Assembly (NCBI GenBank): GCA_003221005.1
Contig: QHTZ01000081.1
Coordinates: 32,001-96,000, forward strand
Direction of reading: 5' to 3'
Source of the DNA: Gemmatimonadota bacterium
GTDB taxonomy: Bacteria > Gemmatimonadota > Gemmatimonadetes > Gemmatimonadales > GWC2-71-9
DNA length: 64,000 nucleotides
Shown: piece after piece, positions 1 to 29,266 of the stretch
How the letters are laid out: each line of letters starts with the position of its first letter
Numbering within the stretch: position 1 is the stretch's first letter
Position numbers and translations under genes: made by a program
Notes under the pieces: generated by a model
What the model saw: the letters and a program-made list of their open reading frames with translations, nothing else
Told to the model about the DNA's origin: nothing
Databases searched by the model: none

Positions 1-1830
<1,830 letters not shown>

Positions 1831-12374: not shown

Positions 12375-12788
12375 TCACGTCCCATCATAGTCCACGTAGT
12401 TCCGATCCGTCTCCCAGAGACGGATCCGTTTGAGGGTGGCCGGCCGCACGGCTGGCTGAAGCACGCGCCAGCACACGACCGCGATGTTCTCGGCGGTCGG
12501 ATTCAGGCCGGCGAACCAGGGCACGTCGACGTTCAAGTTCTTGTGGTCGAGATGGCTCACCACGCACTCCGTCGCGATCTGCTTCAACCGCTGCACGTCC
12601 ATGACGTAGCCCGTGGCGGGGTCGATCTCCCCCTCCACCGAGATGTCAAGGTCGTAATTGTGCCCGTGATAGTTCGGGTTGTTACAGACGCCGAACACGC
12701 CCGCGTTCTCGGCATCGGAGAAGCTCGGGTTCCACAGGCGATGAGCGGCGCTGAAGTGGACGCGGCGAGTGATGACGCATCGCGGCAT
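12375..12788 (-). CDS. 6-pyruvoyl-tetrahydropterin synthase family (Cx5HGH, PTPS-II-like)
   Basis: FSAAHRL, CNNPNYHGHNY, DHKNLN, TAENIA, WETDRN. Confidence 0.92.
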   Translation of the reverse strand: MPRCVITRRVHFSAAHRLWNPSFSDAENAGVFGVCNNPNYHGHNYDLDISVEGEIDPATGYVMDVQRLKQIATECVVSHLDHKNLNVDVPWFAGLNPTAENIAVVCWRVLQPAVRPATLKRIRLWETDRNYVDYDGT

Positions 12789-14428: not shown

Positions 14429-16482
14429 TGGAGGCTACTCCCATGATCGCCTGCCGCCGGTTCCTGCTCGCCAGCGCGCTCGTGGCCGTCGCCACAGCTG
14501 CGCCTGTCGCCGCCCAGCGCGGCGTGAATCGGGCCTACCTCGACACGAGCTGCGCGCCTTGCAGCGATTTCTTCGGGTTCGCGAACGGCGCTTGGGTCAA
14601 GACCGCGACCATCCCGGCCGCGTACGCGAGCACCGGGGCCGCCCGCGAGCTGTACGACCGCAACCAGGAGACGCTGCGCAAGGTGCTCGAGCGTGCCGCG
14701 GCGGCCGCTGACACGACGCACGACGCCACGCTCAAGAAGCTCGGCGCCTTCTACGGGAGTTGCATGGACTCCGTAGCCGCCGAGCGGGCGGGGGCGGCGC
14801 CGATCGCCGACGAGCTGCGCCGTATCGACGCGATCCGCACCGTGCGCGACCTGCAAGACGCAATCGTCCGCTTCAACCGGCTTCAGATCTTCGCGCCATT
14901 CTCTTTCTCGGCAGAGGCCGATCCCAAGGAGAGCTCGCACAACATCGGACAGCTGTACCAGGCCGGGCTCGGGCTCCCCGACCGGGACTACTACCTGAAG
15001 ACCGACGCCGCCTCGGACTCGCTACGCCAGAAGTACGTGGCCCACGTGGCGCGCACGCTCGCCCTGCTCGGCACGCCGTCCTCCCAGGCTGAGCAGGACG
15101 CCCAGCGCGCGATGCGCTTCGAGACTGCGCTCGCCGAGTCATCGATGACGCTCGTCGCCCAGCGCGATCCCAACGCCATCTACCACAAGATGACGGTGCG
15201 GGAGCTACAAGCCCTCGCTCCCGCCCTCGACTGGCCGGCTTTGTTTGGCGGGCTGGGGGTGCCGCTGGCCGATCCCGCGGCCGCGCTCGACGTCTCGCAG
15301 CCCGCATTCCTCCGGCTGGTGAGCGCCATGGTCCAGAGCACGCTCCTCGCCGACTGGCGGGTCTATCTGCGCTGGCAGCTTGCGGGCGCCACGGCGCCGA
15401 CGCTCAGCAGCGGGTTCTTCAATGAGGACTTCCAGTTCCAGACGGTGCTGCGGGGCGTCAAGGAGCCGCTACCCCGCTGGAAGCGGTGCGCGGCGGCGGC
15501 GGACGACGCGTTGGGGGAGGCGCTGGGCAAGGCCTACGTGGCGAGCGAGTTCTCGCCCGCGGCGAAGGCTCACGTCGTCGAGATCGTCGACAATCTCAAG
15601 GAGGCCCTGGCCGCGCGCATCCGGCAGCTCGACTGGATGAGCGACTCAACCAAGGCTCACGCCTTCGCCAAGCTCGACGCGATCGTCAAGAAGATCGGGT
15701 ACCCGGACCACTGGCGGGACTACTCGGCGCTCGAGGCCCGAGGGGTGTGGCCCTACGCCGCGAACGTGCTGCAGGCGCGCGAGTTCGAGCAGCGGCGCCA
15801 GCTCGCGAAGGTCGGCCGTGCGGTGGACAAGACCGAGTGGGGGATGACGCCGCCTACCGTGAATGCCTACTACAACCCGTCGTTCAACGAGATCGTGTTC
15901 CCTGCCGGGATCCTCCAGCCGCCGTATTTCGACCCAGCGGCCGACGATGCGGTCAACTACGGGGCGATCGGGGCGGTGATCGGCCACGAGCTCACGCATG
16001 GCTTCGACGACCAGGGGCGCCAATTCGACGCCCAGGGCAACCTGCGCGACTGGTGGACCGCGGAAGACGCCCGGCGGTTCACGGAGCGGGCGCAGCGGGT
16101 CGTGGCGCAGTTCAACGGCTACGTCGCGGTCGACACGTTCCACGTGAACGGGCAGCTCACGCTGGGCGAAAACATCGCCGACCTGGGCGGGCTCACCATC
16201 GCCTACTACGCCTTCGAGCAGTCGCTCGCAGGCAAGCCGCGCCCTCGCGACATCGACGGCTTCACACCGGAGCAGCGCCTTTTCCTTGCCTTCGCGCAGG
16301 GTTGGCGCAACCGCACGCGGCCGGAGACCCTGCGGCTCCGCACCCTCACCGACCCGCACTCGCCGCCGCACGGGCGCGTGAACGGGCCCACGTCGAACAT
16401 GCCGGAGTTCGCCCGCGCCTTCGGGTGCAAGGCCGGAGACGCCATGCTCCGGCCCGACAGCGTCCGCGCGGAGGTGTGGTAG
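14428..16482 (+). CDS. M13 family zinc metallopeptidase (neprilysin/PepO-like), exported
   Basis: Signal peptide; VNAYY, HELTH, GENIAD, DPHSP. Confidence 0.95.
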   Translation: MEATPMIACRRFLLASALVAVATAAPVAAQRGVNRAYLDTSCAPCSDFFGFANGAWVKTATIPAAYASTGAARELYDRNQETLRKVLERAAAAADTTHDATLKKLGAFYGSCMDSVAAERAGAAPIADELRRIDAIRTVRDLQDAIVRFNRLQIFAPFSFSAEADPKESSHNIGQLYQAGLGLPDRDYYLKTDAASDSLRQKYVAHVARTLALLGTPSSQAEQDAQRAMRFETALAESSMTLVAQRDPNAIYHKMTVRELQALAPALDWPALFGGLGVPLADPAAALDVSQPAFLRLVSAMVQSTLLADWRVYLRWQLAGATAPTLSSGFFNEDFQFQTVLRGVKEPLPRWKRCAAAADDALGEALGKAYVASEFSPAAKAHVVEIVDNLKEALAARIRQLDWMSDSTKAHAFAKLDAIVKKIGYPDHWRDYSALEARGVWPYAANVLQAREFEQRRQLAKVGRAVDKTEWGMTPPTVNAYYNPSFNEIVFPAGILQPPYFDPAADDAVNYGAIGAVIGHELTHGFDDQGRQFDAQGNLRDWWTAEDARRFTERAQRVVAQFNGYVAVDTFHVNGQLTLGENIADLGGLTIAYYAFEQSLAGKPRPRDIDGFTPEQRLFLAFAQGWRNRTRPETLRLRTLTDPHSPPHGRVNGPTSNMPEFARAFGCKAGDAMLRPDSVRAEVW

Positions 16483-16520
16483 GGGGGACGAGGGAGGTGG
16501 GACGGGGGACGGGTAAGACA

Positions 16521-16552
16521 ACGGGGCGCCTGCTGATTAGCGGGCGCCCCGT
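16521..16552. terminator. Hairpin between convergent genes
   Basis: ACGGGGCGCCTGCT-GATT-AGCGGGCGCCCCGT. Confidence 0.6.
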
Positions 16553-16578
16553 GCCACAGTAACTCGCAGCGGCTTGCG

Positions 16579-17109
16579 TTACATCCCGAACGTGAACCCG
16601 AGCGTGACGGGGAAGAAGTTCGTCGCGCTGTTGCTGGTGCGGACTGAGATGAACCGCGCCTCGCCGAAGATGTGCATCGGCCCGAGACCGAGGGCGACCC
16701 CCGTGCCGCCGTCGAACGCAGGCTTGGACTGGGAAGTGCCCGATATGTCCACGCTATAGTAGCCCAGCCCCGCCAGCAGGTAGACCTTCACCGGCACCAT
16801 CGGCGCGCCGATGTGATAGACCGCATTAGCCGTCCCGCCGGTCAGCTTGGTGCCGCCGGAGAGCAAGCCGCCCTGGTGACTGGTGTGGCCGTACACGAGA
16901 TCGGCACGGACCGAGAGCGGCGAGTGGGGCAGGCCCAGGTCGAGCGCGCCCATCAGGTGCCAACCGGCGTTGTCCAGAGTGGAGTAATCCCCCGACGGAA
17001 CTACGCCGCCGAGGCCCAAGCTGAGGCGAGGCTTCTGCGCAGCCGCTGGCGAGGCGACGAGCGCCCCCATCCAGCCGAGGACCACCAAGCTCAACAGTAC
17101 CCGTTTCAT
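16579..17109 (-). CDS. Outer-membrane beta-barrel protein (8-strand type)
   Basis: Signal peptide, alternating beta strands, C-terminal PVTLGFTF. Confidence 0.8.
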   Translation of the reverse strand: MKRVLLSLVVLGWMGALVASPAAAQKPRLSLGLGGVVPSGDYSTLDNAGWHLMGALDLGLPHSPLSVRADLVYGHTSHQGGLLSGGTKLTGGTANAVYHIGAPMVPVKVYLLAGLGYYSVDISGTSQSKPAFDGGTGVALGLGPMHIFGEARFISVRTSNSATNFFPVTLGFTFGM

Positions 17110-17162
17110 TGGACTGCCTCCGCATCGCAAGAACTGCAGGTGGGCCAGCGGGCGCGGGGCAG

Positions 17163-17204
17163 ATGATAGAGATGGGGGGGCGGCCAGGACGTGATGCAGA
17201 TCAC
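17163..17204 (-). promoter_or_regulatory. CRP/FNR-family class II promoter
   Basis: GTGA-N6-TCAC at 17191-17204 centred about -41.5 relative to minus-strand -10 TATCAT (17168-17163). Confidence 0.6.
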
Positions 17205-17261
17205 CAATTTCGCTCAACTGATTGTGGCAATGCGGGTTAGCGCGAGGCCCGACGGCTCCGG

Positions 17262-18488
17262 TCAGCGTGTCAGCACCAGCGCGACCACGCCCCACGCGAG
17301 CGTGAGCGCGGTGACGGGCATGCCCACGCGGGCGTACTCCCAGAAGCCGATCGGCGCGCCGCGCTTCTCGGCGCGCTCGGCTACGATGAGGTTCGCCATC
17401 GACCCGATGAGCAGCAGGTTCCCGGCGAACGTCGAGCTCATCGCGACCACGCGCCACACGAGGTCCGAGTCGGGGAGGTTGGGCACCGTGTTGCGCCACA
17501 GGATGACCGCCGGCACGTTAGAGATCAAGTTCGAGAGCCCCGTGAGCGCGGCGCTCACGACGACGGCGGCGCGCCACACCGTGCCGTGGCTCAGGAGCGA
17601 CACCGCGTGGCGATCGATCCAGGCTACGGCGCCCGTCTGCTCGAAGCCGCGCATCACCACGAACAGAGAAGCGAAGAACAGCAGCAGCGACCACTCGACG
17701 CGGTCGATCGCGTAGGCCGGGTCGCGCTGCCCGAGCGCCACCATCGCGGCGCCCGCCGCGATCGCTACGAGGGGGAGCGGCCCGCCGGCGAGCCACGCCA
17801 CGACGGCGCACCCGAACATCGCGAGCCCCTTCGCGACCAGCGGACGGTCGAGGGCGACGGGCACGGACTCGAGCCGCTCGCGGAACGGCTCGCGTAGCTC
17901 CGCGCCATAGACCCAGCGCAGGTAACCGTAGGTGATCGCAAGCCCGCCGGCCGCCACCGGAAGCATGTGCGCGAGGAACCCGCCGAACGTCGCTCCGCTC
18001 CAGATCCCCACCAGCATGTTCTGCGGGTTTCCCGTGATCGACAGCACCGAGCCGACGTTGGAGCCCATCGCGAGGCCGATGAGATACGGGTTCGGTCGCA
18101 CGCGCAGCGGGCCGAGCGCGGCGAGCAGCACCGGCGTGACGACGAGGCAGATCGTGTCGTTCACGAACAGCGCCGACAACAGGCCGCCCCCGATGACGAC
18201 GCCGAGCAACAGCCGCTCGGGCGTGACCGCGCGCTTCAAGACCCATTCCGCCGCCCACTCGAAGAACTTCCCCACCTCGAGGTAGCCGACGATGAGCATG
18301 AGGCCCAGCAGGAAGACGAGAACGTCGAAATCGATGGCGGCGTAGGCGTCGGGGAGCGGCAGCACGCGGAACGCGACCATCGCAACCGCGCCGAGCAGGC
18401 TTGCGGCGGGCCGATTGAGGTGCACGAAAGGCAGGCGCTGGACCGCGATGAGAAAGTAGGTCGCGGCGAAGATGATGAGGCCGGTCAG
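17262..18488 (-). CDS. ArsB/NhaD/SLC13-type anion permease
   Basis: SALFVNDT, SNVGSVLSITGNPQN, SNLISNVP, STFAGNLLLIGSMAN; start inferred (CTG overlapping upstream TGA). Confidence 0.85.
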   Translation of the reverse strand: MTGLIIFAATYFLIAVQRLPFVHLNRPAASLLGAVAMVAFRVLPLPDAYAAIDFDVLVFLLGLMLIVGYLEVGKFFEWAAEWVLKRAVTPERLLLGVVIGGGLLSALFVNDTICLVVTPVLLAALGPLRVRPNPYLIGLAMGSNVGSVLSITGNPQNMLVGIWSGATFGGFLAHMLPVAAGGLAITYGYLRWVYGAELREPFRERLESVPVALDRPLVAKGLAMFGCAVVAWLAGGPLPLVAIAAGAAMVALGQRDPAYAIDRVEWSLLLFFASLFVVMRGFEQTGAVAWIDRHAVSLLSHGTVWRAAVVVSAALTGLSNLISNVPAVILWRNTVPNLPDSDLVWRVVAMSSTFAGNLLLIGSMANLIVAERAEKRGAPIGFWEYARVGMPVTALTLAWGVVALVLTR

Positions 18489-19453
18489 ATCTCCCAGTTG
18501 GAGAACAGCACGCCCGTGCCCGCGTGGGGCTCGGGGTACCCCTCGCAGGTCATGCGCAGGTCGGTCCAGCGCACGCGGTAACCGCGCTCGATCAGGTGCC
18601 GGAACGCCCCCTCGTAGCGCGTCTGACAGCGGATCGCGACGCGGCGGATGCCGGCACGCGCCGCGGCTGCCTCCGTGGCGACGAGCGCGGCCGCGAAGGC
18701 GCGCTCGTCCCGCGCGGCGAGCTTCAGGATGCGGAGCTCTTCCTTGGGCCGGCCCTCGGCGAGCGGCGCCGAGTGCCACAGCACGAAGGCGTCGAGCCCG
18801 TCGCTGCCGTCCACCAGCGTCGTGTCGCCGAGACCGAGCTGCGCCGTGAGCAGAATCTCCCGCGTGAAGTCCGGGCCAGGGGCGAGCGCCCCGACGAGCC
18901 GGGCGGCCGCCGCGGTCGCGGCCTGCTGCGCGGCCGCGGGGCGCTGCGACAGGAGCGCCGGGGCGGCGTGACCACGCGTCGCGAGATCGCGCGTCATCGT
19001 CACCGTGAGGTAGCCAGGAGCGAACCCGAGGCGCCCGTAGAAGCCGATGTTCTCGACCGTGCGCGGCATCGTCTCGAGGCCCACGGTGGCGACGTGCTGG
19101 TCCACCAGCCAGTCCACCGCGGCCCGCACGGTCGCCTTGCCGATCCCCACGCCCTGCCGGTCGGGGCGGACCGCGAGCGGGCCCATCCACCCCTCGGCGC
19201 CCGAGCGGTGCGCCACGTTGAAGGCGACGACCTGTCCCGCCTCGTCGCGCCACACCATCGCGCCGTCGCCCGCGTCGAGCAGCGCGTAGCGCCACACCTG
19301 GGGATTGAGATGCGGCACCCGCACGCCGACCAGGCCGTCGCGGCGGTAGCGGTCGGTGAACGCGTCGGCGAACACCCGGTTCAGGCTCTCGATGTCGCGC
19401 TCGACCGCGCGCTCGGGGCCCGAGACCTGGCGCTCAGGCAGCCACGCCCGCAT
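18485..19453 (-). CDS. GNAT family acetyltransferase (tandem GNAT)
   Basis: LAVRPDRQGVGIGK acetyl-CoA motif, FYGRLGF. Confidence 0.85.
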   Translation of the reverse strand: MRAWLPERQVSGPERAVERDIESLNRVFADAFTDRYRRDGLVGVRVPHLNPQVWRYALLDAGDGAMVWRDEAGQVVAFNVAHRSGAEGWMGPLAVRPDRQGVGIGKATVRAAVDWLVDQHVATVGLETMPRTVENIGFYGRLGFAPGYLTVTMTRDLATRGHAAPALLSQRPAAAQQAATAAAARLVGALAPGPDFTREILLTAQLGLGDTTLVDGSDGLDAFVLWHSAPLAEGRPKEELRILKLAARDERAFAAALVATEAAAARAGIRRVAIRCQTRYEGAFRHLIERGYRVRWTDLRMTCEGYPEPHAGTGVLFSNWEI

Positions 19454-21843
19454 CGGCAGCTCCCGGCGTCGCGGTGTCGTCCCGGACCACACTCGTGCCC
19501 CCGTCCCGGGTAGCGTCATAGTCCACGCGGATCACTCGATCCACCCCTTCCCGCACCTGCTCGATGTGCGTGATGAGAATAACCTGTGGGAAGCGATCAG
19601 CCAGCCGGCGCAGCAGGGCGACGACGTGCTGGCGGCGCGCGTCGTCGAGCGAGCCGAAGATCTCGTCGAGCACCAGGAGCGAGAGCGGCTGGCCGGCGCG
19701 CTCCGCGATCATCTGCGAGATCGCGAGCCGCAGCACCAAGTTCGCCACGTCTTCCTCGCCCCCCGAGATCACGGGCTTGGGGACGCCGCCATCGAGAATG
19801 ACGACCTCGTAGTCCTCGGTGAGATCGATCTGCTGATAGCGCCCGTCGGTGAGGTCCGCCAAGAAGTCCGACGCGAGATCGGCGATCTCGGGGCGCATCG
19901 CGGCATTCAGGTCGGCCCGCAGATCGGAGAATGCGCGATCCAGCTCGTTGTGGAGGCGGTGGCGCGTCTTGCGCTCGCTGATGTCCCGGTCCCGCGCCGC
20001 GCGCTCCTCCTCCCGGCGCGCGGCCTCTTGCACGTCCCCCTCGGCGCGCGACAGGTCGCCGCGGGCCTCGACCAGCGCCAGCTCCGCCTCACGCAGGGTC
20101 CCGAGCGCCCGGTCGTAGCGATCCTTGGCGAGGCGGAACTGCTCCTCGGAGAAGCCCTCCGCCCGGACGGCGTCCGCCAGCTCGCGCACCCGGCGCTCGG
20201 CCTGGGAGAGCAACTGCTCCGCCTGCTCCGCCTCGGGCACCAGGCCCTCCGCCCGCTGCGCCCGCTCCTCGAGCGCCGCGGCTTCCAGCGCCACCGGCTC
20301 GAGCTTCACCAGCTCGGCCCGGACGGCGTCGTGGCGCGCCGCGTCGTATCCCGTGCGGCGCGTCGCGAGCCGGCGCTCCAGGCCCGTGGCGCGCTCCCGG
20401 GCGGCATCCAGCTCCGCCTTGGCCCGCGCGCGCTCCTCGGCCTGCGCCCGCAGCTCGCCTGCCCGCTCGCTCGCCCGCCGGCTCTCCTCTCGCAGCTCGT
20501 CGCGCTGCGCCTCGAGCAGCCCCACACCGGCGGGCGGCTCCGCGAGCTGCTCCAGCCGTTGGCGGAAGAACTTGCCGTCCTCCACGATCGCCTGGAGCTG
20601 ACGGTCGAGGATTCCGAGCACCGCGGCGTGCTCGCCCCCGAGCGGCCGCCGGCACGTCGGGCACTCTCCCTCGGGGCCGAGCTGGGCGATCTTGTCGCGC
20701 TGCTCCTTCACCTCGTCGTACTGCTTGAGGAGCTCCGCCCGCCGCGTCGCGGCGTATTCCTTCTCCCGCACCCAGGCTGCCTGCTGCTCCTCGACTGCCG
20801 CCTCGGCCGCCTGCACGCGCTCGGCGAGGCGCCGTGCCTCCGCCTCCGCTCGCTCGAGCGCCGCCCCCACGTCCGCGAGCTCCGCGATCCGCTGCTCCAG
20901 CCCGCGCGTGGTGCGCGCCAACTCGTCGAGCTGCGCCTGCTCCGCGCGCCGGGCCGCCTCCTCCCGCTGGAGCAGCTCGAGGTCGGCGAGCTCGCCCTTG
21001 AGCCGGGCCACGGGCGCGAGCTCCGCCTCCAGCTGCTTCAGCTGCTCGCGCGCTTTGAGCGCGTCGGCCAGCTCCTTGTCGAGCCGCTGGAACTCCTGGC
21101 GCCGCCCCTCGACGGCCTGGTGCGCCATGCGGCGCTCCCCGTCGAGCGACAACGTGCGCTCGCGCCGCGCGGTCCACTCGTTCCAGCGCGGCTCCTCGCG
21201 CGCGAGCCGCTGCTGGGCCTGCGCCCGGGCCGTGTCCGCCGCCTGCGCCGCGCGCTGCGCCGCCGTCAGGCGGGCTTCCGCAGCGCGGCGCTGCTCGGCG
21301 AGCGCCTGGGGATCGGGGAGCGCGGCCTCGAGCCCCTTCACTTCGGCGGCGAGCGTATTCCGCACCTCGCGCACGCGCTCCTGCGCGAGGCGCAGCCGCT
21401 CGTACCCGAGCACCTGCGAGAGGAACGCGGCCCGGTCGGTCTTCCCGAGCGCTGCCATCACCTTGAGCTCTTTCTGGCCCGTGAAGTAGGTGTTGAAGAA
21501 CTCCTGGTGCGTCATCCCCAGGGCCCGCTCGAGCTTGTCCGTCACCGCCTTGAGGGAGTTGGCGACGAGCTGGCCGTCCTGATGCAGCGCCGCCGTGGAC
21601 AGCGTACGGGCGACCCGGTACTCGTGCGCGCCGAGCCGGAACTCGAGCTCCACCTCGACGTTGGCGCGCCCCTTCACCCCGATGCGCCGGATGGAGTCCT
21701 TGTCCCCGCGCACGGCCTGGACGCCGTACAGCGCCCAGGCGATCGCCTCCAGGATCGTCGTCTTCCCGGAGCCGTTGGGGCCGATGATCCCCGTGATGCC
21801 GGGACCGAACTCGAGCTCGGTGTGCGCGTGCTGCCGGAAGCTC
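19434..21843 (-). CDS. sbcC: SMC-family ATPase Rad50/SbcC (first residues missing)
   Basis: GPNGSGKT, Q-loop, coiled coils, CPTC hook, ISGGE, LDEIFGSLD, ITH; no start codon at junction. Confidence 0.92.
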
Positions 21844-22956
21844 CGTGCGGTCCAGATCGGCGTCGAGGGGGCGCCGCTCCAGGAACTCACGCACCGTCTC
21901 GGGGATGGTCTGTCGCCGTCCGGCCACGCCCACGGTCTGGAGGCGAGGCAGCTCGGGGCGGCGGACATCGAGCTGGAAGTGGAGCGCGCGCGCCTTGTAC
22001 GCTCGGATGGCGGCGTGATCGAGGTCGCGCGCCGTGGCGCGGGAGACGTCGAACACGAGGAGGCGCACCACCTGGTCGTCGATCGGCGGCTTGGCGACGG
22101 CCACTGCGGCGGCGATCCGCTCGTCCAGCTCCTTCGGGGTGAGGCCTTTCCCTTCGATCACGGGCAGCTCGACGTGGCGCCGCGCCAGCGCCAGCGGTCG
22201 AAACGTCACCCGGGCGCCCGGCAGCTCCACCAGGAGGTAGCCCTTCCCGCGCCGCCCGTGCTCCGCTTCGTCTTGGAGCTGGCCCCACGGATTGGGGGCG
22301 ACGTACTCGAGGCTCCCCGCGTACCACGCGTTGGGCGCCAGCTGCTGCGCCACGTGGTAGTGGCCGAGCGCGACGTAGTCCCACTGGGCGGGGGCGAGGT
22401 CGGTGCGATCGACCGGCGCGCCGCCGTACTCCATGGTGCCGCGCGCTTCGCCCACTCCCGGCCATTGCCCGTGGAGCAGCAGCACGTTGAAGGTGCGCCC
22501 ACCCTGCGGCCGCAGGGCCGGCCGCTCAGGTTGGGCCAGCGCCTGATGCGGCACCGCGAGGACCGAGCAATCGAGCGCCGGGAAGACGAGCCGCCGTGCC
22601 TGGTCCACCACCACCTCCACGCCGAGCGCTTCGTACAGCCGCAGGATCGTCCCGGTCTCGGCGCTGCGGGGCGTGTCGTGCTCTCCCGCGATCATCACTA
22701 CGGCGGAGTCGGGTAGCTCTGCCCGCAGGCGCTGCAGCTGGCGAAACAGGAACAGGATCGCGGGGTTGGCCGGCCGGATGGAGTGGAAGATGTCTCCCGC
22801 GAGGAGAATCAAGTCGGGGCGCTGGTCGATGAGGTCGTCCACCGCGCGCCGGAACGCTTCGGCGACGTCGGCCTCGCGCTGGTTCCCGCCCCGAGGCGTC
22901 TGCCGCTCGCACTGGCGGAACCCGAGGTGCAGGTCGGCGAGGTGCGCGAGCTTCAC
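21844..22956 (-). CDS. sbcD: Mre11/SbcD metallophosphoesterase nuclease (C-terminus lost at junction)
   Basis: DLHLG, AGDIFH, GEHD, LGHYH, YAGSLE; beyond about 21844 it reads into a shadow frame of sbcC. Confidence 0.9.
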
Positions 22957-22960
22957 CCGC

Positions 22961-23818
22961 TCACTTCGCCTCGTTCAGCTGGAGCGACGTGAGATGTTGC
23001 AGCGACATCTGCACCGCTCCCTGCGGACCGCCGCTCACGTTGACCCGCATGTTCCCTCCCATCGACGAGCGGACCGCCGCCCCCCGCGTGACCGAGAACA
23101 GCTGCTCCCCGGCGAGCCCCCCCGTCAGCTTCAGCGTTTGCCGCGCCCCGCCGTCCCCGGTGACGGTGATCGGGTCCCCCGGAAAAGTGGTCTCCACGCC
23201 GACCAGGATGGTGGTGTCGGGGCCGCCCGCATTCAGCTCCTTGAGCGTCAACTTCGTATGCGCCCTGGCCGTGCCGCTCCCGATCTCGCCGACGGGCAGC
23301 GCGGTTTCCGTGGTCCAGGAGTCGCCCACCCCCACGGGCTGCTCGGGGAGGGGGAAGACCATCCCCTCGATGTGACCCCCCAACTGCTCCATGATCTGCG
23401 GCGGTAGCCCGCGGACCGGGGCGAGCTCGGCGTGCAGCACGTTCATGCGGTCGTCGTAGACGACCTGGCCCTTGAGTCCGCGCATCCCAACGAGCACGGG
23501 ATCGAGCGAGCCGGGCGCCAGCATGGTGGACTCGATGGCGGTCGAGTCGAGCCTGATCGTCACGGCGACGCCACCCCGCGCGGGCCCGCCCACGGACTGG
23601 GTGAAGTACATCCGCGTGGTGAACTTCTGCTCCCCCAAGTGCCCCATGGGACCGCCCTCGAGCTTCATGGAGTTGTGCTGCTCCAGGGCGTAGTGGTACG
23701 AGGCGCCGACCGGTGGATGGTAGCGCAGCGTCAGCTTCGTGGCGCTCCGTTCTTTGCCGCACCCGAGGGCCGCGAGCCCCAGAGCGAGCCCTGCGAAGCG
23801 ACGGGCGTGGTGTGACAT
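22961..23818 (-). CDS. Hypothetical beta-rich lipoprotein
   Basis: Lipobox ALGC; LPEQPVGVGDSW motif. Confidence 0.7.
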   Translation of the reverse strand: MSHHARRFAGLALGLAALGCGKERSATKLTLRYHPPVGASYHYALEQHNSMKLEGGPMGHLGEQKFTTRMYFTQSVGGPARGGVAVTIRLDSTAIESTMLAPGSLDPVLVGMRGLKGQVVYDDRMNVLHAELAPVRGLPPQIMEQLGGHIEGMVFPLPEQPVGVGDSWTTETALPVGEIGSGTARAHTKLTLKELNAGGPDTTILVGVETTFPGDPITVTGDGGARQTLKLTGGLAGEQLFSVTRGAAVRSSMGGNMRVNVSGGPQGAVQMSLQHLTSLQLNEAK

Positions 23819-23832
23819 CCAGCGGCCTCCAG

Positions 23833-25791
23833 TCAGTATGGTTCGTCCGACAGCGGGTTGAGGGGCGGCACCGCCTCGCGCGCGCGTCCGGCGGGCTCGG
23901 CCGCCGCGACCCGCGCCCCTAGCGCCCGCCGGAAGAACGCGAGCGGGTCTTCGGGCCGGGCGCGCCGTGTCGCGGCGAGCGCGCGGCGCACGTCATCCGG
24001 CGCGCGGTCGACGATGAGGTCGTGCACCGCGTTCGGCCGGATCCTGCGGTCGAGCCTGAGGAGCTGGCGCACGACCGCGTCGGCGAACGGCAGATCGGCA
24101 GCGGGTGGGAACCGCTCGACGCCGTCCCGCCCGCGCAGCACCGCGGGCCGCGGGAACCGCACGAAGATCGGTTGCGTGAAATGCGGGTGGCGCACCATCA
24201 GCTCGCCGATGGGCAGGGTGGCGAGCTTGATCTTGGTGGCGGGCGAGAGCACCTGGTAGCCGGGCGTGGCCAGCTCGTCGTAGTCCATACGCCCGTAGAC
24301 GATCGTGCCGGCGTTCCCCACCACTCGCCGATGTACCTGCGAGCGGAACTGCTCGGCGCCGAAGAGCACGAGCCCAAGGTAACGCCCGCGCTCCGAGATA
24401 TCGAGCAGCATCTTGCGGACGTACGTGTCCGGCCCGTCGGCCGGCGCGTACTTGTTGAGCTCGTCCACGAACACCACGACGGCCTCGACGCCGAGATCGC
24501 GCCGCTCGAGGTGCTCGCGCAGCTGCGACACGACGCGCGCAAACACGAGGTCCTGGCCAAGCGGATCCACGTTCGCCAGATCGACCACGTACACGGCCCG
24601 GTCCTCGAACGCGCCCCACGGCAGGTCGTTCGAGGGGCCGTCGTCGGTGACGAGCCCCTTGCAACGGGTCGAGATGTTGGAGAGCCGGTTCCGGACCTTG
24701 CGCATCGTCGCGATGTGATGAGTGCGCCACATGTCGCTGCGGCCTGCCAGCTCGAGCCCGTCGAAGATGGCGCGGAACAGCGCATCCAGGTCTGCGAACG
24801 TCTGGACCCGATGGGTGCCGCCGAAGCCATCGTCGAACTCCCGGTTGAGCACCCGGTCGGCGAGGAAGTCGATGAATGCGTCGGCCTTGGCGTCGATGTC
24901 GTCGCGGTTCAGGAGCACTTCGGCGAAGTCGAGCACCTCCTGGAGGCCCCACACGAGGGGCTCGACGGCGCCCACGAGGTCGGGATGGGTGCGCAGCGTA
25001 TTGAGGTTCACGCCGTCCGCCTTGAAGGGCGCGTAGTAGCGCACCCGGCGGAACGGCTGCGGCGCGACCCCGAGCCGCTCGTAGCGGCGGCGGTCCGCGT
25101 CGTCGAGGCTCCCCGGCTGGTCGAGGAAGCAGAGGTCGGGACCCTTCACGTTGAAGCACACGGCGGCAATCCGTCCCTTGTGCGCCGGGAAGTGCTGGAA
25201 GATGGACGACAACAGGAACTCGACGGCGCTCGTCTTGGTCGCGAGTCCAGAGACGCCCGAGATGTTGAGGTGAGCCGCTTCAGGACCGTGCAGGAAGTCC
25301 GCGTCCAGGTAGACCGGCGCCTCGAGCCCTCCCGAGGTGTACAGCCCCACCGGGATGGCGGTGGGGGTGGCGCCCTGGAGGTAGGTCTCCATGCGGAGGG
25401 CGCGGGCCACGTCAGGGTCGGTCGCCACGAACACGCGGCCGAGCGGGACCGGCTGCAGCGGCTCCTCGGGCTCCTGGCGCAGCACGGCCGCGGTCCACAG
25501 CCGAATCTCCTGGCGCACCGTGGGGCTGTCAGCTGCGCGAGCGGGATCTCCGTCGGCGCCGACCACGTCGTGCAGTGGGGTGGCAAGGTCGGAGTAGGCG
25601 AACCCATCCGTCACAACCCCGAAGACCACCCTTCCCTCTTCCCCCGTCCCACTTCCCTCGACCCTGACAATCGCCCCGATCCCGATCGCCGTCTCGGTAG
25701 CGGTCCAGAAGTGGAATTGGTGCGGCGTCGCCGGCTTGAGCTCGGTGGCGACCACCCGGCCGACCGGCTCCGGCGCCCGTTTCTGGATCAC
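23833..25791 (-). CDS. herA: HerA-type helicase/translocase ATPase
   Basis: N-terminal HAS-barrel-like region, variant Walker A SGVSGLATKTS, FNVKG, Walker B VFVDELNKY, ERGR..G. Confidence 0.85.
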   Translation of the reverse strand: MIQKRAPEPVGRVVATELKPATPHQFHFWTATETAIGIGAIVRVEGSGTGEEGRVVFGVVTDGFAYSDLATPLHDVVGADGDPARAADSPTVRQEIRLWTAAVLRQEPEEPLQPVPLGRVFVATDPDVARALRMETYLQGATPTAIPVGLYTSGGLEAPVYLDADFLHGPEAAHLNISGVSGLATKTSAVEFLLSSIFQHFPAHKGRIAAVCFNVKGPDLCFLDQPGSLDDADRRRYERLGVAPQPFRRVRYYAPFKADGVNLNTLRTHPDLVGAVEPLVWGLQEVLDFAEVLLNRDDIDAKADAFIDFLADRVLNREFDDGFGGTHRVQTFADLDALFRAIFDGLELAGRSDMWRTHHIATMRKVRNRLSNISTRCKGLVTDDGPSNDLPWGAFEDRAVYVVDLANVDPLGQDLVFARVVSQLREHLERRDLGVEAVVVFVDELNKYAPADGPDTYVRKMLLDISERGRYLGLVLFGAEQFRSQVHRRVVGNAGTIVYGRMDYDELATPGYQVLSPATKIKLATLPIGELMVRHPHFTQPIFVRFPRPAVLRGRDGVERFPPAADLPFADAVVRQLLRLDRRIRPNAVHDLIVDRAPDDVRRALAATRRARPEDPLAFFRRALGARVAAAEPAGRAREAVPPLNPLSDEPY

Positions 25792-26774
25792 GAAGCCGCT
25801 TTGGGGAGGCGGGAGGCGGGGGACGGGAGCAGGTCCCGCGGGGCGCGCGCTCTCAGATACGTCTCCACGTCATGAATGGGATAAAGTAATCGATCCCACC
25901 GCGCATCGGGGGTCGAGACCGGCGCGCGCTCGCGCGCGAGCCAGCCGCTCACGCCCGACGCCGCCGTGACCGTTGCGGGATGGGCGCGCGCCTCGACCCG
26001 CAGCAGGCCGAACAACAGGTCGTTCCCCTCCCACGGCCACAGCCGCAGGTACCACGAGTAAACCTCGTGGTGCGCCCGACCCCGCGGGCGGAACACCGAG
26101 GTGCGATGCAGCGCCGGAAGCGTGAGGGCGCGCGTGAGGGCGTCGCCCTCGAAGTACTGCGCGCCGTGGCTCTTGATCACGCCGAGCGCGCGCGGATGCC
26201 CGGCGAGGCGGGCGGACTCGGAGAGCACACCGTCCACGACGAACCACTCTTCGGCGCCGAGCGACGCGAGGTGCCGCTCCGCCAGGTCCTTCTCGAGCGC
26301 GACGCGGGCGTTCTCGACGGCGCGCCGTGCTGCCTCGAGCGCCGGCCCAGGCTGGCCCAGGGCCTCCTGAGGCACGTCCACCAGGTCCACGCCGCTCGCC
26401 TCGAGCGCCGCGCGCACGCCGGGACGCAGCGCGGCCACGGCTGCCGCGTGAAACTCCCGCGTCGTCTCCCCGACGACGCGCAGCCGGCGGTCTCCAGTCC
26501 GGCGTCGCACGGCGGACGCCACGTACGCCCGCACGATGGGCACGGCGCCGTCGTAGTAGGTGACCTTCCAGCGCTGGATACCGTCGAGGAAAGAGGCTGT
26601 CGCGGGGGGGGCAATGACGCCGCCGGGATCGAGTGGGTGGATCCGGACCTCCGTGTCCTCGACCAGCTCGGCCCCGGCGACCTCGCTGAGCTCGGTACGC
26701 CCCAGGCTCTCCTCCGGGACGTGCGACGCCCGCACGGCCCCTGCCGCCACGATCGCGTCCGCCCAGCTGCGCAT
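25788..26774 (-). CDS. nurA: NurA-like 5'-3' nuclease
   Basis: FLDG, VVDG, GVIKSH, late PIHDVE; coupled to herA. Confidence 0.75.
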   Translation of the reverse strand: MRSWADAIVAAGAVRASHVPEESLGRTELSEVAGAELVEDTEVRIHPLDPGGVIAPPATASFLDGIQRWKVTYYDGAVPIVRAYVASAVRRRTGDRRLRVVGETTREFHAAAVAALRPGVRAALEASGVDLVDVPQEALGQPGPALEAARRAVENARVALEKDLAERHLASLGAEEWFVVDGVLSESARLAGHPRALGVIKSHGAQYFEGDALTRALTLPALHRTSVFRPRGRAHHEVYSWYLRLWPWEGNDLLFGLLRVEARAHPATVTAASGVSGWLARERAPVSTPDARWDRLLYPIHDVETYLRARAPRDLLPSPASRLPKAAS

Positions 26775-26776
26775 GG

Positions 26777-27505
26777 CTAGCGGGTCCGCAGTGCCCAGCC
26801 GATGTAGGTGATGCTCGTGTCGTCCACCAGGGAGCGGGTCCCGTCGGGCGCCCGGCCCACGCCCTTCACCTCCTGCACCACCATGCCGTGGCGCGCCAGC
26901 CCGTCGCCAAGCTCGGCGGGCGTGATGAAGCGGGCGAAGTCGTGGAAGCCTTCGGGCATCGTATGGCGCACGTATTCCTCTTCCCAGATCAGCTCGAGGA
27001 ACGCGGCCAGAGTGCGGTTGTGCGTAAGGAAGCCGAGCCCGCCACCGGGGGCGAGCACCGTGGCGATCGCGTCGACGGTGGCGTCGAGGTCCTCCACGTG
27101 CTCGAGCACGTCCACGGCGAAGACGAGGTCGAAGCCCACCCCGAGCCCGCCCGACGCGAGCGCCTCGGCCGTGCCAAGCCGGTAGTCGATCGAGAGGCCG
27201 GAGCGCGCCGCGTGCTCACGCGCGGCCGTGAGGGACTTTTCCGACGGATCGACCCCGGTGACGATCGCCCCCTCGCGGACGAGCGTTTCCGCCAGGATCC
27301 CCCCGCCGCACCCCACGTCCAGGGCGCGCTTCCTGCCGAAGCCGCCGAACACCGTGCGGAAGTACTCGACCCGCAGCACGTTGAGCTGATGCAACCCGAC
27401 GAAGGGACCCGCGTCGCTCCACCACACGCCCGGGACGCGCTCGACGAGGCGTTCGTACTTGTCCGGCTCGGAAAGCCCGCCGACGCGGGGGAGGGAGTCG
27501 GTCAG
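26777..27505 (-). CDS. ubiG: UbiG-like SAM O-methyltransferase
   Basis: WWSDAGPF..LHQLN..R, LDVGCGGGIL, VLEHV, NRT, FITP. Confidence 0.8.
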   Translation of the reverse strand: MTDSLPRVGGLSEPDKYERLVERVPGVWWSDAGPFVGLHQLNVLRVEYFRTVFGGFGRKRALDVGCGGGILAETLVREGAIVTGVDPSEKSLTAAREHAARSGLSIDYRLGTAEALASGGLGVGFDLVFAVDVLEHVEDLDATVDAIATVLAPGGGLGFLTHNRTLAAFLELIWEEEYVRHTMPEGFHDFARFITPAELGDGLARHGMVVQEVKGVGRAPDGTRSLVDDTSITYIGWALRTR

Positions 27506-28023
27506 GCCGTGGCCTCGACGTCGACGTTGGGGAAGGGTGGCACCTCGAGGAACCACAGGCCCGCGATCCGCGCGTGCTTGTCTATCTCCACCAGCAGCAG
27601 ATCCGCCACGCGCACGACTGTGACCGAGCGCGAGCGGCCCACACGCAGGTGGAACACCGACTCCGTCTGGTTCTTCTCGACCGTGAGCGCGGTATCCACT
27701 TCGACGCCGGCGACTCCGGGCTGCGACAGCCGGCTGGGGAACACCACGCGCCCCTCCTTCGCGGCCGCCGGCGTCGCGAGCTGCTCGATGGTGCGGACGT
27801 CATCGGGCCACGACACGACGTCAACGCCCCGCAGGCACCCGTCCGCGACCTCGATGACGACGAACGAGCCGTCGGTGCCTTCCAGGTCCACGGTGCCGTT
27901 CAACCCGTTCGATTTGGCGACGCCCTTGCACGCCACCGACAGGATGTCCGTCTCCGGATCCCAGTGGTAGCTCACCTTGGGAAGTTTGCCGCCGAGTGGC
28001 TCGATGCGCGCTTCGAAGTTCAT
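27502..28023 (-). CDS. Hypothetical protein, first gene of the operon
   Basis: Typical codon style; stop overlaps ubiG start. Confidence 0.7.
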   Translation of the reverse strand: MNFEARIEPLGGKLPKVSYHWDPETDILSVACKGVAKSNGLNGTVDLEGTDGSFVVIEVADGCLRGVDVVSWPDDVRTIEQLATPAAAKEGRVVFPSRLSQPGVAGVEVDTALTVEKNQTESVFHLRVGRSRSVTVVRVADLLLVEIDKHARIAGLWFLEVPPFPNVDVEATA

Positions 28024-28091
28024 GGGGAACGACGCCTTCCACCTGCTCGCGAGGGCGGATAATATAGCGCCTGACTCGGAGGGAGCCAGCG

Positions 28092-29266
28092 ATGCAACGG
28101 CGGGAGTTCGTCTCGGTGGCTGGGGCCCTGGTCCTGGCGGCGACGGAAGGACGGAAGGACGGAAGGGGGTGGCGGGGACGTTCCGTCCTTCCGTCGTTCC
28201 GTCCTTCCGTCGCCTCTCAGGAACCAGCCCTCTCGCCCGAAGTCTTCTCCCGCCGCCTCGCGCGCGCGCAGGCGGAGCTCAAGACCCGCAAGTGGGACTT
28301 CCTCATCGCCACGCCAGGCACGACCTACCTCTATTTCACCGGCTACAACCCGGGCCGGAGCGAGCGGCTCATCGCGCTCGTCATCCCCGCGAGCGGCGAG
28401 CCCGCGATCGTGTGCCCGTCGTTCGAGGTGGACCGCATCAAGCGCCATGCGACGGCGCTCGACATCACGGGGTGGGAGGAGCCGGCGAATCCCTATAAGC
28501 TGGTCGAGCGCGTGGTCCGCGCGCGCAAGCCCCGGGCTCCCGGGACGATCGCGCTCGAGTCCTCGACCGCGTTCGGATCGTATCTGGGCATCAAGGACGC
28601 GCTTGGGGGCTGGAAGTTTGAAGATGCCGCCGCCATCACCGACCGGCTGCGGATCATCAAGTTTCCCGAGGAGATCGCGCTGATCCGCCGCGCGATCGCG
28701 ATCACCGAGGACGCGATGGCGGCCACCTTCGCGCAGCTCGCCGTGGGCGTAAGCGAGCACGACGTGGCGGGGGTGCTCGAGCGGGAGATGGAGCGGCGCG
28801 GCGGAGAGGGGGGCGGCGGGCTGGTGCAGTTCGGGCCGTCGAGCGCCCTGCCGCACGGCGGCCCCGCGAGCGTCACGCTCGAGCGCGAGATGGTGGTGCT
28901 GATCGATTGCGGCTGTCGCGTCTCGGGCTATACGTCCGACATCACGCGCACGATCTGGTTCGGCGACCATTGGGCCGGCCCCTCGTCACCCCATGTGAGG
29001 AAATGGATCGCGCCGCGCGCAAGGTGATCAGCGACGCCGGCTTCGGCCGTAACTTCACCCACCGCCTCGGCCACGGAATCGGCCTCGACGGCCACGAGCC
29101 GCCGTATCTCGTCGAAGGAAACGAGGTCCACCTCGAGCCAGGGATGGTGTTCACGCTCGAGCCAGGGGTGTACCAAACTGGGAAATTCGGAGTGCGGATC
29201 GAGGATGACTGTCTGATGACGGAGAACGGAGTTGAGGTCCTGAGTCACCGACCGTCCAAACTCTGA
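28092..29266 (+). CDS. Xaa-Pro (M24) peptidase with Tat-like signal, split near 28970
   Basis: MQRREFV; IDCG, SDITRT in one frame; HRLGHGIGLDGHE, EPGVY, GVRIED in another. Confidence 0.88.
28141..28212. repeat. Octamer tandem-repeat hairpin in peptidase N-terminus
   Basis: (GACGGAAG)3 ... (TTCCGTCC/G)4. Confidence 0.85.

Follow-up and report, generated by a model that had tools for sequence, protein, structure and literature searches.

In bacteria, only two NurA-HerA pairs, those of Thermus and Deinococcus, are counted as characterised in the accessible part of a 2026 review, which also describes bacterial nurA as being without stable four-gene co-clustering (PMC13748450). The portion of a second paper that is open to us gives nurA-herA without adjacent sbcDC in both Thermus and Deinococcus; the same portion reports that Oceanithermus profundus encodes SbcD and SbcC homologues downstream of its HerA homologue, from which its authors infer an archaeal-like architecture and function of double-strand-break repair (PMC5448004). 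The Oceanithermus locus is thus a published precedent for an arrangement of this kind. We analysed a stretch of DNA (contig QHTZ01000081.1 of a soil bacterium in the phylum Gemmatimonadota; the window, meaning the whole 64-kb stretch) in which a nurA-like gene, a herA-like gene, a lipoprotein gene, sbcD (mre11) and sbcC (rad50) lie tightly packed on the minus strand at 19434-26774, as read from the list of open reading frames (ORFs) and their translations. Throughout the Gemmatimonadota relatives that we examined, we found a bacterial-type NurA-HerA pair in stable linkage with Mre11-Rad50. These data contradict the statement on missing stable nurA clustering in the part of the review available to us (PMC13748450), because none of the 51-52 Gemmatimonadota loci with room for the linkage is without it, and it occurs in three other phyla as well. 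A literature search, with supplements outside its scope, found no paper that deals with NurA or HerA in Gemmatimonadota, and two papers that name all three a few times at most, on other subjects; nor, with the 2026 review's supplementary 'expanded synteny analysis' likewise outside the scope, did it find a description of such a cluster for Actinobacteria, Cyanobacteria or Chloroflexi.

We reason that the cluster is probably a chromosomal, vertically inherited module of Gemmatimonadota for DNA-end processing or resection, acting most likely on the ends of double-strand breaks. This reading is drawn from the identities of the genes, their conserved motifs, their linkage, the recurrence of the linkage in other phyla, the housekeeping context and the Oceanithermus precedent (PMC5448004, in the part open to us). 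By analogy with solved and assayed homologues, Rad50 together with Mre11 would attach to DNA ends that are broken or blocked and clip them, a HerA ring would use ATP to drive the duplex into a NurA dimer, and the RNase H-type site of NurA would cut the strands, either leaving 3' tails for RecA or degrading linear DNA. The identities, folds, catalytic motifs and linkage are laid out below as observed; from them we infer that the proteins would form complexes, that the two pairs would cooperate, and what their biological role may be. The features of the cluster are as follows:

25788..26774, minus strand: nurA-like gene, 328 amino acids (aa); nuclease with an RNase H fold, placed in a divergent subfamily of bacterial NurA
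23833..25791, minus strand: herA-like gene, 652 aa; ATPase of the FtsK/HerA superfamily, Deinococcus type
22961..23818, minus strand: lipoprotein gene, 285 aa, modelled as a beta-barrel; inserted variably and outside the conserved core
21841..22956, minus strand: sbcD/mre11, with codons 1-372 out of the 390 of the intact gene; cut off before its 3' end and stop codon
21840..21841, no strand assigned: deletion junction at the sbcD/sbcC boundary, with about 85 nt absent by a DNA alignment with five relatives
19434..21839, minus strand: sbcC/rad50, codon 11 to stop; start codon and first 9 codons missing, codon 10 changed

Identity of the four proteins

The first-pass annotation had named nurA, herA, sbcD and sbcC as the four functional genes here, and sequence, profile and fold matches bear this out. 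The product of 23833-25791, proposed as a HerA with a Deinococcus-like Walker A motif, matches the solved D. radiodurans HerA chain 7f6d_B at E=1.3e-41 over residues 10-286 and 376-560, that is, over the N-terminal part and the ATPase core (phmmer against the Protein Data Bank, PDB). This is its sole PDB sequence match below E=0.1, and no archaeal HerA chain in the PDB is matched at E up to 10. The likeness of the Walker A motif is visible in the alignment with 7f6d_B, in which both the atypical Walker A (..SG[VL]ATKTS; ..SGLATKTS in the window) and the DELNKYAP Walker B region align; both motifs are invariant in 12 homologues. No Pfam model, the HerA central domain (DUF87) included, and no NCBIfam family is matched at E up to 10, and some close homologues carry the JGI label 'DNA helicase HerA-like ATPase'. 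A predicted 1:1 complex of HerA and NurA stayed under the mark of 0.32, with scores of 0.18 and 0.23, which speaks neither for nor against binding.

The first-pass annotation had staked its proposal in advance on a NurA fold in 25788-26774, and such a fold is found there. The protein itself matches no Pfam or NCBIfam family, even at E up to 10, and no PDB sequence directly; a profile of 22 close homologues likewise finds no PDB match. The AlphaFold2 model (pLDDT 83.8, pTM 0.83) has as its best Foldseek match the D. radiodurans NurA chain 7f6d_G (E=1.1e-12, TM 0.56, 18% identity), followed by TM1739 of Thermotoga maritima (1zup_A, 5.5e-11) and Sulfolobus NurA (2ygk_A, 2.8e-6); endonuclease V and Argonaute come after the NurA structures, TdpAB chain G is a weaker fold match (8wfd, E=3.6e-5, TMq 0.39), and in a viral fold library, searched at E up to 0.001, nothing resembled NurA. 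A whole-library profile search (E up to 0.001) gathered a family of 778 representatives at 50% identity. A profile of 78 members of this family matches NurA 7f6d_H at 1.7e-9 and TM1739 at 1.8e-9, and 11 of the 78 match Pfam NurA (PF09376) directly (best 4.8e-7); since these matches belong to family members or to the profile and not to the protein itself, its sequence link to Pfam NurA is transitive only. From the modelled fold, the 78-member profile and the members that match Pfam NurA, we assign the predicted protein to the NurA superfamily, and its subfamily as one that current Pfam and NCBIfam models overlook. Its nearest relatives outside Gemmatimonadota bear Armatimonadota names, and its Atlas neighbours are most frequent in Actinomycetota and Thermomicrobiota.

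The catalytic positions are largely kept as well. Across the 78 diverse members, D64 is present in at least 90%, and G65, E161 and D181-G182 are invariant; by motif position, D64-G65, E161 and D181-G182 correspond to NurA motif I (FLDG), the catalytic Glu and motif II (VVDG), as these motifs are defined in the accessible parts of PMC13748450 and PMC3300031. H301, in an LxxxH motif, is a candidate for the His of NurA motif III (LxxAH); it is present in at least 90% of the 22 Gemmatimonadales sequences, and the wider 78-member consensus has Arg and then Asp there. The two Asp and the Glu agree with the catalytic set Asp-Glu-Asp-His given for P. furiosus NurA in the part of PMC3300031 open to us, and the Gemmatimonadales His may be the fourth member of that set.

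Because the closest solved relatives are bacterial (D. radiodurans HerA for the one protein; D. radiodurans NurA and TM1739, ahead of Sulfolobus NurA, for the other), HerA and NurA are of bacterial type, and the word 'archaeal' applies to the gene architecture only. The label 'archaeal-style' of the first-pass annotation is therefore kept for the architecture and dropped for these two proteins, and dropped also for the gene order, which is neither of the archaeal orders given in the accessible text of PMC13748450.

SbcD is recognised by Pfam Metallophos (44 bits, cut-off 21.5) and matches PDB Mre11 chains at 1e-14; its best NCBIfam models, Mre11_Sulfo (74 bits, cut-off 500) and TIGR00619 (62.1 bits, cut-off 77.65), all score below their cut-offs. 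SbcC passes the cut-offs for SMC_N (78.3 bits, cut-off 40) and AAA_23 (66.2 bits), matches PDB Rad50 heads at 2e-31, and keeps the Walker A motif, the CxxC hook, SGGE and the Walker B DE; its match to Rad50_zn_hook is weak (19 bits against a cut-off of 24.3, at residues 421-449 of the 844-aa ORF, with a CPTC site), and its best NCBIfam model is the archaeal Rad50 PRK03918 (202 bits, below cut-off). The archaeal and Sulfolobus NCBIfam models for Rad50 and Mre11 outscore their bacterial counterparts (sbcc at 99 bits, sbcd at 62 bits), all of them far below their cut-offs. The best solved matches of the two proteins are chains that we take to be from Pyrococcus and Methanocaldococcus, and then from Thermotoga.

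The claim of five co-oriented, tightly coupled genes stands as to strand, coordinates and packing and fails at one point, the sbcD/sbcC junction, which is broken by a deletion of about 85-97 nt. In a DNA alignment with five relatives, the window is short of this segment, which comprises the last 18 codons and the stop of sbcD together with the start and first 9 codons of sbcC; in the five aligned relatives the rad50 start overlaps the sbcD stop. In the window the sbcD frame stays open as far as 20089, and sbcC lacks a proper start. That the sbcD frame enters sbcC without a stop codon would suit a natural Mre11-Rad50 fusion or a programmed frameshift, not damage. We consider this highly improbable and reject it, on the grounds that the remaining sbcD and sbcC frames are offset by one base, that separate stops are the rule in relatives, and that sister contigs are intact. 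sbcD has its own stop codon in 58 of 58 relatives examined (length 390-415 codons in 57), and the rad50 Walker A, located in 55 of these, lies 86-92 nt past that stop in 54 (272 nt in the remaining one, locus L030). Sister contigs carry separate genes: an SbcD of 390 aa (P0391), 100% identical over the 365 residues queried, on four other contigs, and an SbcC of 811 aa (P0542), identical at 801 of 802 positions from its residue 10, on three contigs. Of 15 listed cluster members, 11 have the 811-aa length, the 844-aa form is confined to one contig, and the absent segment includes conserved residues of both proteins.

Because near-identical sister contigs are intact and the 844-aa form is found on a single contig, the boundary defect is private to the window's contig; it reflects either variation in a single strain or a mistake of assembly. 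Since the deletion breaks both sbcD and sbcC, the contig in its assembled form could have a functional NurA-HerA only.

Linkage across Gemmatimonadota

The linkage to sbcCD proposed by the first-pass annotation is kept in relatives. A scan with a HerA alignment (A4) found 576 HerA relatives in species-representative genomes, and the best 80 were taken as the synteny sample; all 80 loci are from Gemmatimonadota, with HerA 71-88% identical to the window's, so that the counts describe close relatives only. Over the loci with enough sequence on the relevant side, nurA lies immediately upstream of herA in 70/70, sbcD lies no more than 2.5 kb downstream of herA in 52/52, and sbcC follows sbcD directly in 51/51 (12 of 48 loci give no sbcC match when tblastn corrects for composition, and all give one without the correction). 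Median identity to the window is 82% for HerA, 69% for SbcD and 54% for NurA. One named assembly supplies two of the HerA loci, L004 and L010 (HerA identity to the window 88% and 86%), which suggests either a mixed bin or two copies.

The lipoprotein gene, which the first-pass annotation had counted as a member of the cluster, does not hold that place: it is a variable insert. Of 52 loci, 21 have herA and sbcD only 3-303 nt apart, 22 have them 821-916 nt apart, and in the other 9 the distance is 1653-2017 nt. The insert accordingly occurs in 0, 1 or 2 copies, with two tandem paralogues in L069 (11661-13663). The lipoprotein call comes from a lipobox-like ...LGC at the N-terminus of the translation. 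The protein has a weak, below-cut-off match to DUF6263 (19.4 bits), and its AlphaFold2 model (pLDDT 88.7) most closely resembles the lipid-binding beta-barrels of ApoB, MTP and lipovitellin (TMq 0.46-0.52). In this lipoprotein or secreted beta-barrel, the signal sequence is followed by an LRYHPP motif. We regard the lipoprotein as an unrelated envelope gene and not as a conserved cluster member. Such unrelated genes part herA from sbcD in 31 of 52 loci, so the nurA-herA and sbcDC halves need not be translationally coupled.

In the window, the stop of nurA and the start of herA overlap as GTGA, the spacer from herA to the lipoprotein gene is 14 nt and contains GGAGG, and that from the lipoprotein gene to sbcD is 4 nt. 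The cluster is flanked by two further genes:

26777..27556, minus strand: ubiG-like methyltransferase (TIGR01983 UbiG, 164 bits, cut-off 102.95)
18485..19519, minus strand: GNAT acetyltransferase, 344 aa (Acetyltransf_1, E=8.4e-11); a conserved neighbour

The ubiG-like gene, co-oriented and 2 nt upstream of nurA, is kept in nearer relatives only (tblastn places it upstream of nurA in 21 of 80 loci, some of which lack room). The GNAT gene overlaps the 3' end of sbcC and follows sbcC in 50 of the 50 relatives with room, and may for that reason be co-transcribed with it. A scan of 16000-28600 gave no promoter-like sites and three terminator-like sites. These three, a number not above that in shuffled sequence, are on the plus strand, and none is on the minus strand inside the cluster. 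The 64-kb window has a G+C content of about 65-75%, and the neighbours of the cluster in it are of a housekeeping kind: ligA, tldD/pmbA, acs (acyl-CoA synthetases), gcvP (glycine dehydrogenase), tdk, coaE and peptide transporters. Among the 26 window ORFs scanned, no mobile-element or defence gene was seen. The LigA gene (NAD-dependent DNA ligase; window 58-1830) lies 17.6 kb from the cluster and is an ordinary housekeeping gene.

The divergences of HerA, NurA and SbcD correlate with one another (Spearman 0.76-0.82), and those of the GNAT neighbour correlate at 0.86. Co-divergence within the cluster is thus no stronger than with GNAT and reflects shared descent, not co-function. This bears on a lesser rival to the end-processing reading, in which the linkage is historical only, nurA-herA and sbcDC being two adjacent operons that are inherited together and act independently. 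The 0, 1 or 2 unrelated secreted or lipoprotein genes between the halves would fit such a history, as would a GNAT neighbour that is unrelated, equally fixed (50/50) and equally co-divergent, and as would the nurA-herA genes of Thermus and Deinococcus, given without adjacent sbcDC in the accessible portion of PMC5448004. However, at least three further phyla also have these four genes linked, in two orders and also on plasmids, and the part of PMC13748450 open to us shows thermophilic archaea linking them in further orders. Repeated independent linkage is hard to explain without a shared function, and we therefore give the purely historical explanation little weight as against a joint end-processing role.

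Related clusters and the function of the module

Outside the synteny sample, tblastn found HerA relatives in 6 of 72,556 plasmid records. Five of these (L081-L085, from Chloroflexota, Cyanobacteriota and Actinomycetota) carry the four-gene cluster, and the sixth, from Nostoc, is cut at its end. The order is nurA-herA-sbcD-sbcC in Ca. Chlorohelix allophototropha, Sphaerospermopsis kisseleviana and Aulosira laxa, and herA-sbcD-sbcC-nurA in Streptomyces sp. BB1-1-1 and in Nonomuraea gerenzanensis (an 11.85-Mb record). The hypothetical proteins flanking these clusters belong to the NurA-like family (hhalign probabilities 99.3, 99.1, 98.9 and 97.1%), and two of them also give weak Pfam NurA matches; the HerA-like proteins are 24-35% identical, and SbcC is 1036 and 1117 aa in the two clusters scanned for it. 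ImmA/IrrE metallopeptidase genes stand beside two of the plasmid clusters in two unrelated hosts (L082, 1-7904, and L085, 1-6947). In phages, HerA relatives were found in 2 of 50,697 records; Marinitoga camini virus 1 (KP836355.1, 38516-40135) has a protein annotated 'bipolar DNA helicase HerA' that is 25% identical to the window's HerA.

These clusters bring in the serious rival, namely that the main task of the four-gene module is to break down foreign DNA, be it phage, plasmid or linear DNA, so that it serves defence or exclusion and not repair. Related clusters do sit on plasmids, that of Ca. Chlorohelix adjoining TIR, Swt1-HEPN and ImmA/IrrE genes and that of Streptomyces sp. BB1-1-1 adjoining ImmA/IrrE together with TIGR02680/TIGR02678/DUF2397 genes, the last three of which we take to be Wadjet components; and the NurA model also matches a chain of TdpAB, a defence system. 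In Gemmatimonadota, on the other hand, the cluster holds one chromosomal position with conserved neighbours (the GNAT gene in 50/50) and housekeeping genes around it, and a fixed position of this sort is unlike a variable defence island. PADLOC-DB 2.0 gave no system-specific match: the HerA-like protein has generic ATPase similarities only (mad8 at 7.8e-5, HerA at 4.3e-4), SbcC has generic SMC/ABC similarities to LmuB, mad3 and PbeC, and the NurA-like protein and the lipoprotein have no match. The scarcity of HerA relatives in the phage and plasmid records counts in the same direction. We judge a mainly defensive role in Gemmatimonadota unlikely, if somewhat less so than a purely historical linkage.

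A bolder proposal, to which we give a small chance, joins the two settings: nurA-herA-sbcD-sbcC would be a horizontally mobile bacterial cassette, which on plasmids would act against competing or invading DNA and which in Gemmatimonadota would have become fixed in the core genome as the main double-strand-break resection machine, replacing RecBCD/AddAB. Our literature search found nothing on RecBCD or AddAB in Gemmatimonadota. If the proposal were true, this would be a bacterial phylum with resection initiated by Mre11-Rad50 in the archaeal or eukaryote-like manner.

Several observations weigh against the end-processing reading that we prefer, and we collect them here. In the window, sbcD is disrupted, and in L030 it has a premature TAG (at about 12759-12761) where its neighbours have CAG, leaving 338 codons with the downstream sequence still alignable. 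Motif III of SbcD (residues 90-93, at about 22678-22689) is GEHD, and not the canonical GNHD, both in the window and in the sister protein P0391; it is GTHD or GQHD in close relatives and GNHD in more distant Gemmatimonadota (alignment A6). The Asn of this motif is a metal ligand in the SbcD/Mre11 enzyme family, and the window's SbcD subclade may have an altered nuclease chemistry or be under relaxed constraint. The linkage counts come from close relatives, envelope genes often part herA from sbcD, and the co-divergence of the genes is matched by GNAT. A repair role is, moreover, doubtful for both of the characterised bacterial NurA-HerA pairs. For Thermus, a study by Fujii et al. of 2018, going by its title, reportedly observed UV resistance after inactivation. 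For D. radiodurans, the accessible part of PMC9960219 doubts that the complex is an efficient resection machine in vivo.

Comparison with known systems

The D. radiodurans NurA-HerA complex (7f6d; PMC9960219) resembles the window's pair in that HerA can be aligned over its N-terminal and ATPase parts with the same atypical Walker A, in that its NurA fold is the best structural match for the window's NurA, and in that its nurA and herA are neighbours, which the part of that paper open to us handles as a single operon. It differs in that its NurA is 18% identical in the structural alignment and invisible to direct sequence search, and in that the window has sbcD-sbcC after herA, a linkage that does not appear in the accessible parts of the D. 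radiodurans papers (PMC9960219). The closest precedent in gene order is Oceanithermus profundus, a bacterial locus with the same four-gene architecture, nurA-hepA(herA)-sbcD-sbcC; as far as the text of PMC5448004 available to us goes, it differs in belonging to another phylum (the Deinococcus-Thermus group) and in being described from a single genome and not lineage-wide.

The archaeal operon has the same four protein families, contiguous and co-oriented, and the window's Mre11 and Rad50 score best against archaeal NCBIfam models, below their cut-offs. Unlike it, the window has HerA and NurA on the bacterial branch and the order nurA-herA-(insert)-mre11-rad50, as against herA-mre11-rad50-nurA or nurA-rad50-mre11-herA (PMC13748450, accessible part). 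The claim of the first-pass annotation that the four-gene cluster is typical of archaea holds insofar as these archaeal orders exist, and has to be narrowed insofar as the architecture also occurs in Oceanithermus (PMC5448004, in the portion open to us) and in the bacteria of the plasmid collection. The plasmid-collection clusters share with the window a NurA-like gene of the same family, a HerA-like gene and adjacent sbcD-sbcC, and differ in being plasmid-borne (except for the Nonomuraea record), in their longer SbcC, in some defence-type neighbours and, at the two actinomycete loci, in having nurA last. TdpAB (8wfd/8wet) is like the window in its chain G, which matches the fold of the NurA model; it scores far below the NurA structures, and no link at the level of sequence was found.

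Neither the Thermus nor the Deinococcus NurA-HerA pair adjoins Mre11-Rad50 genes, and the repair role of both is disputed. The Gemmatimonadota clusters provide a natural setting for studying whether HerA-NurA of bacteria cooperates with Mre11-Rad50.

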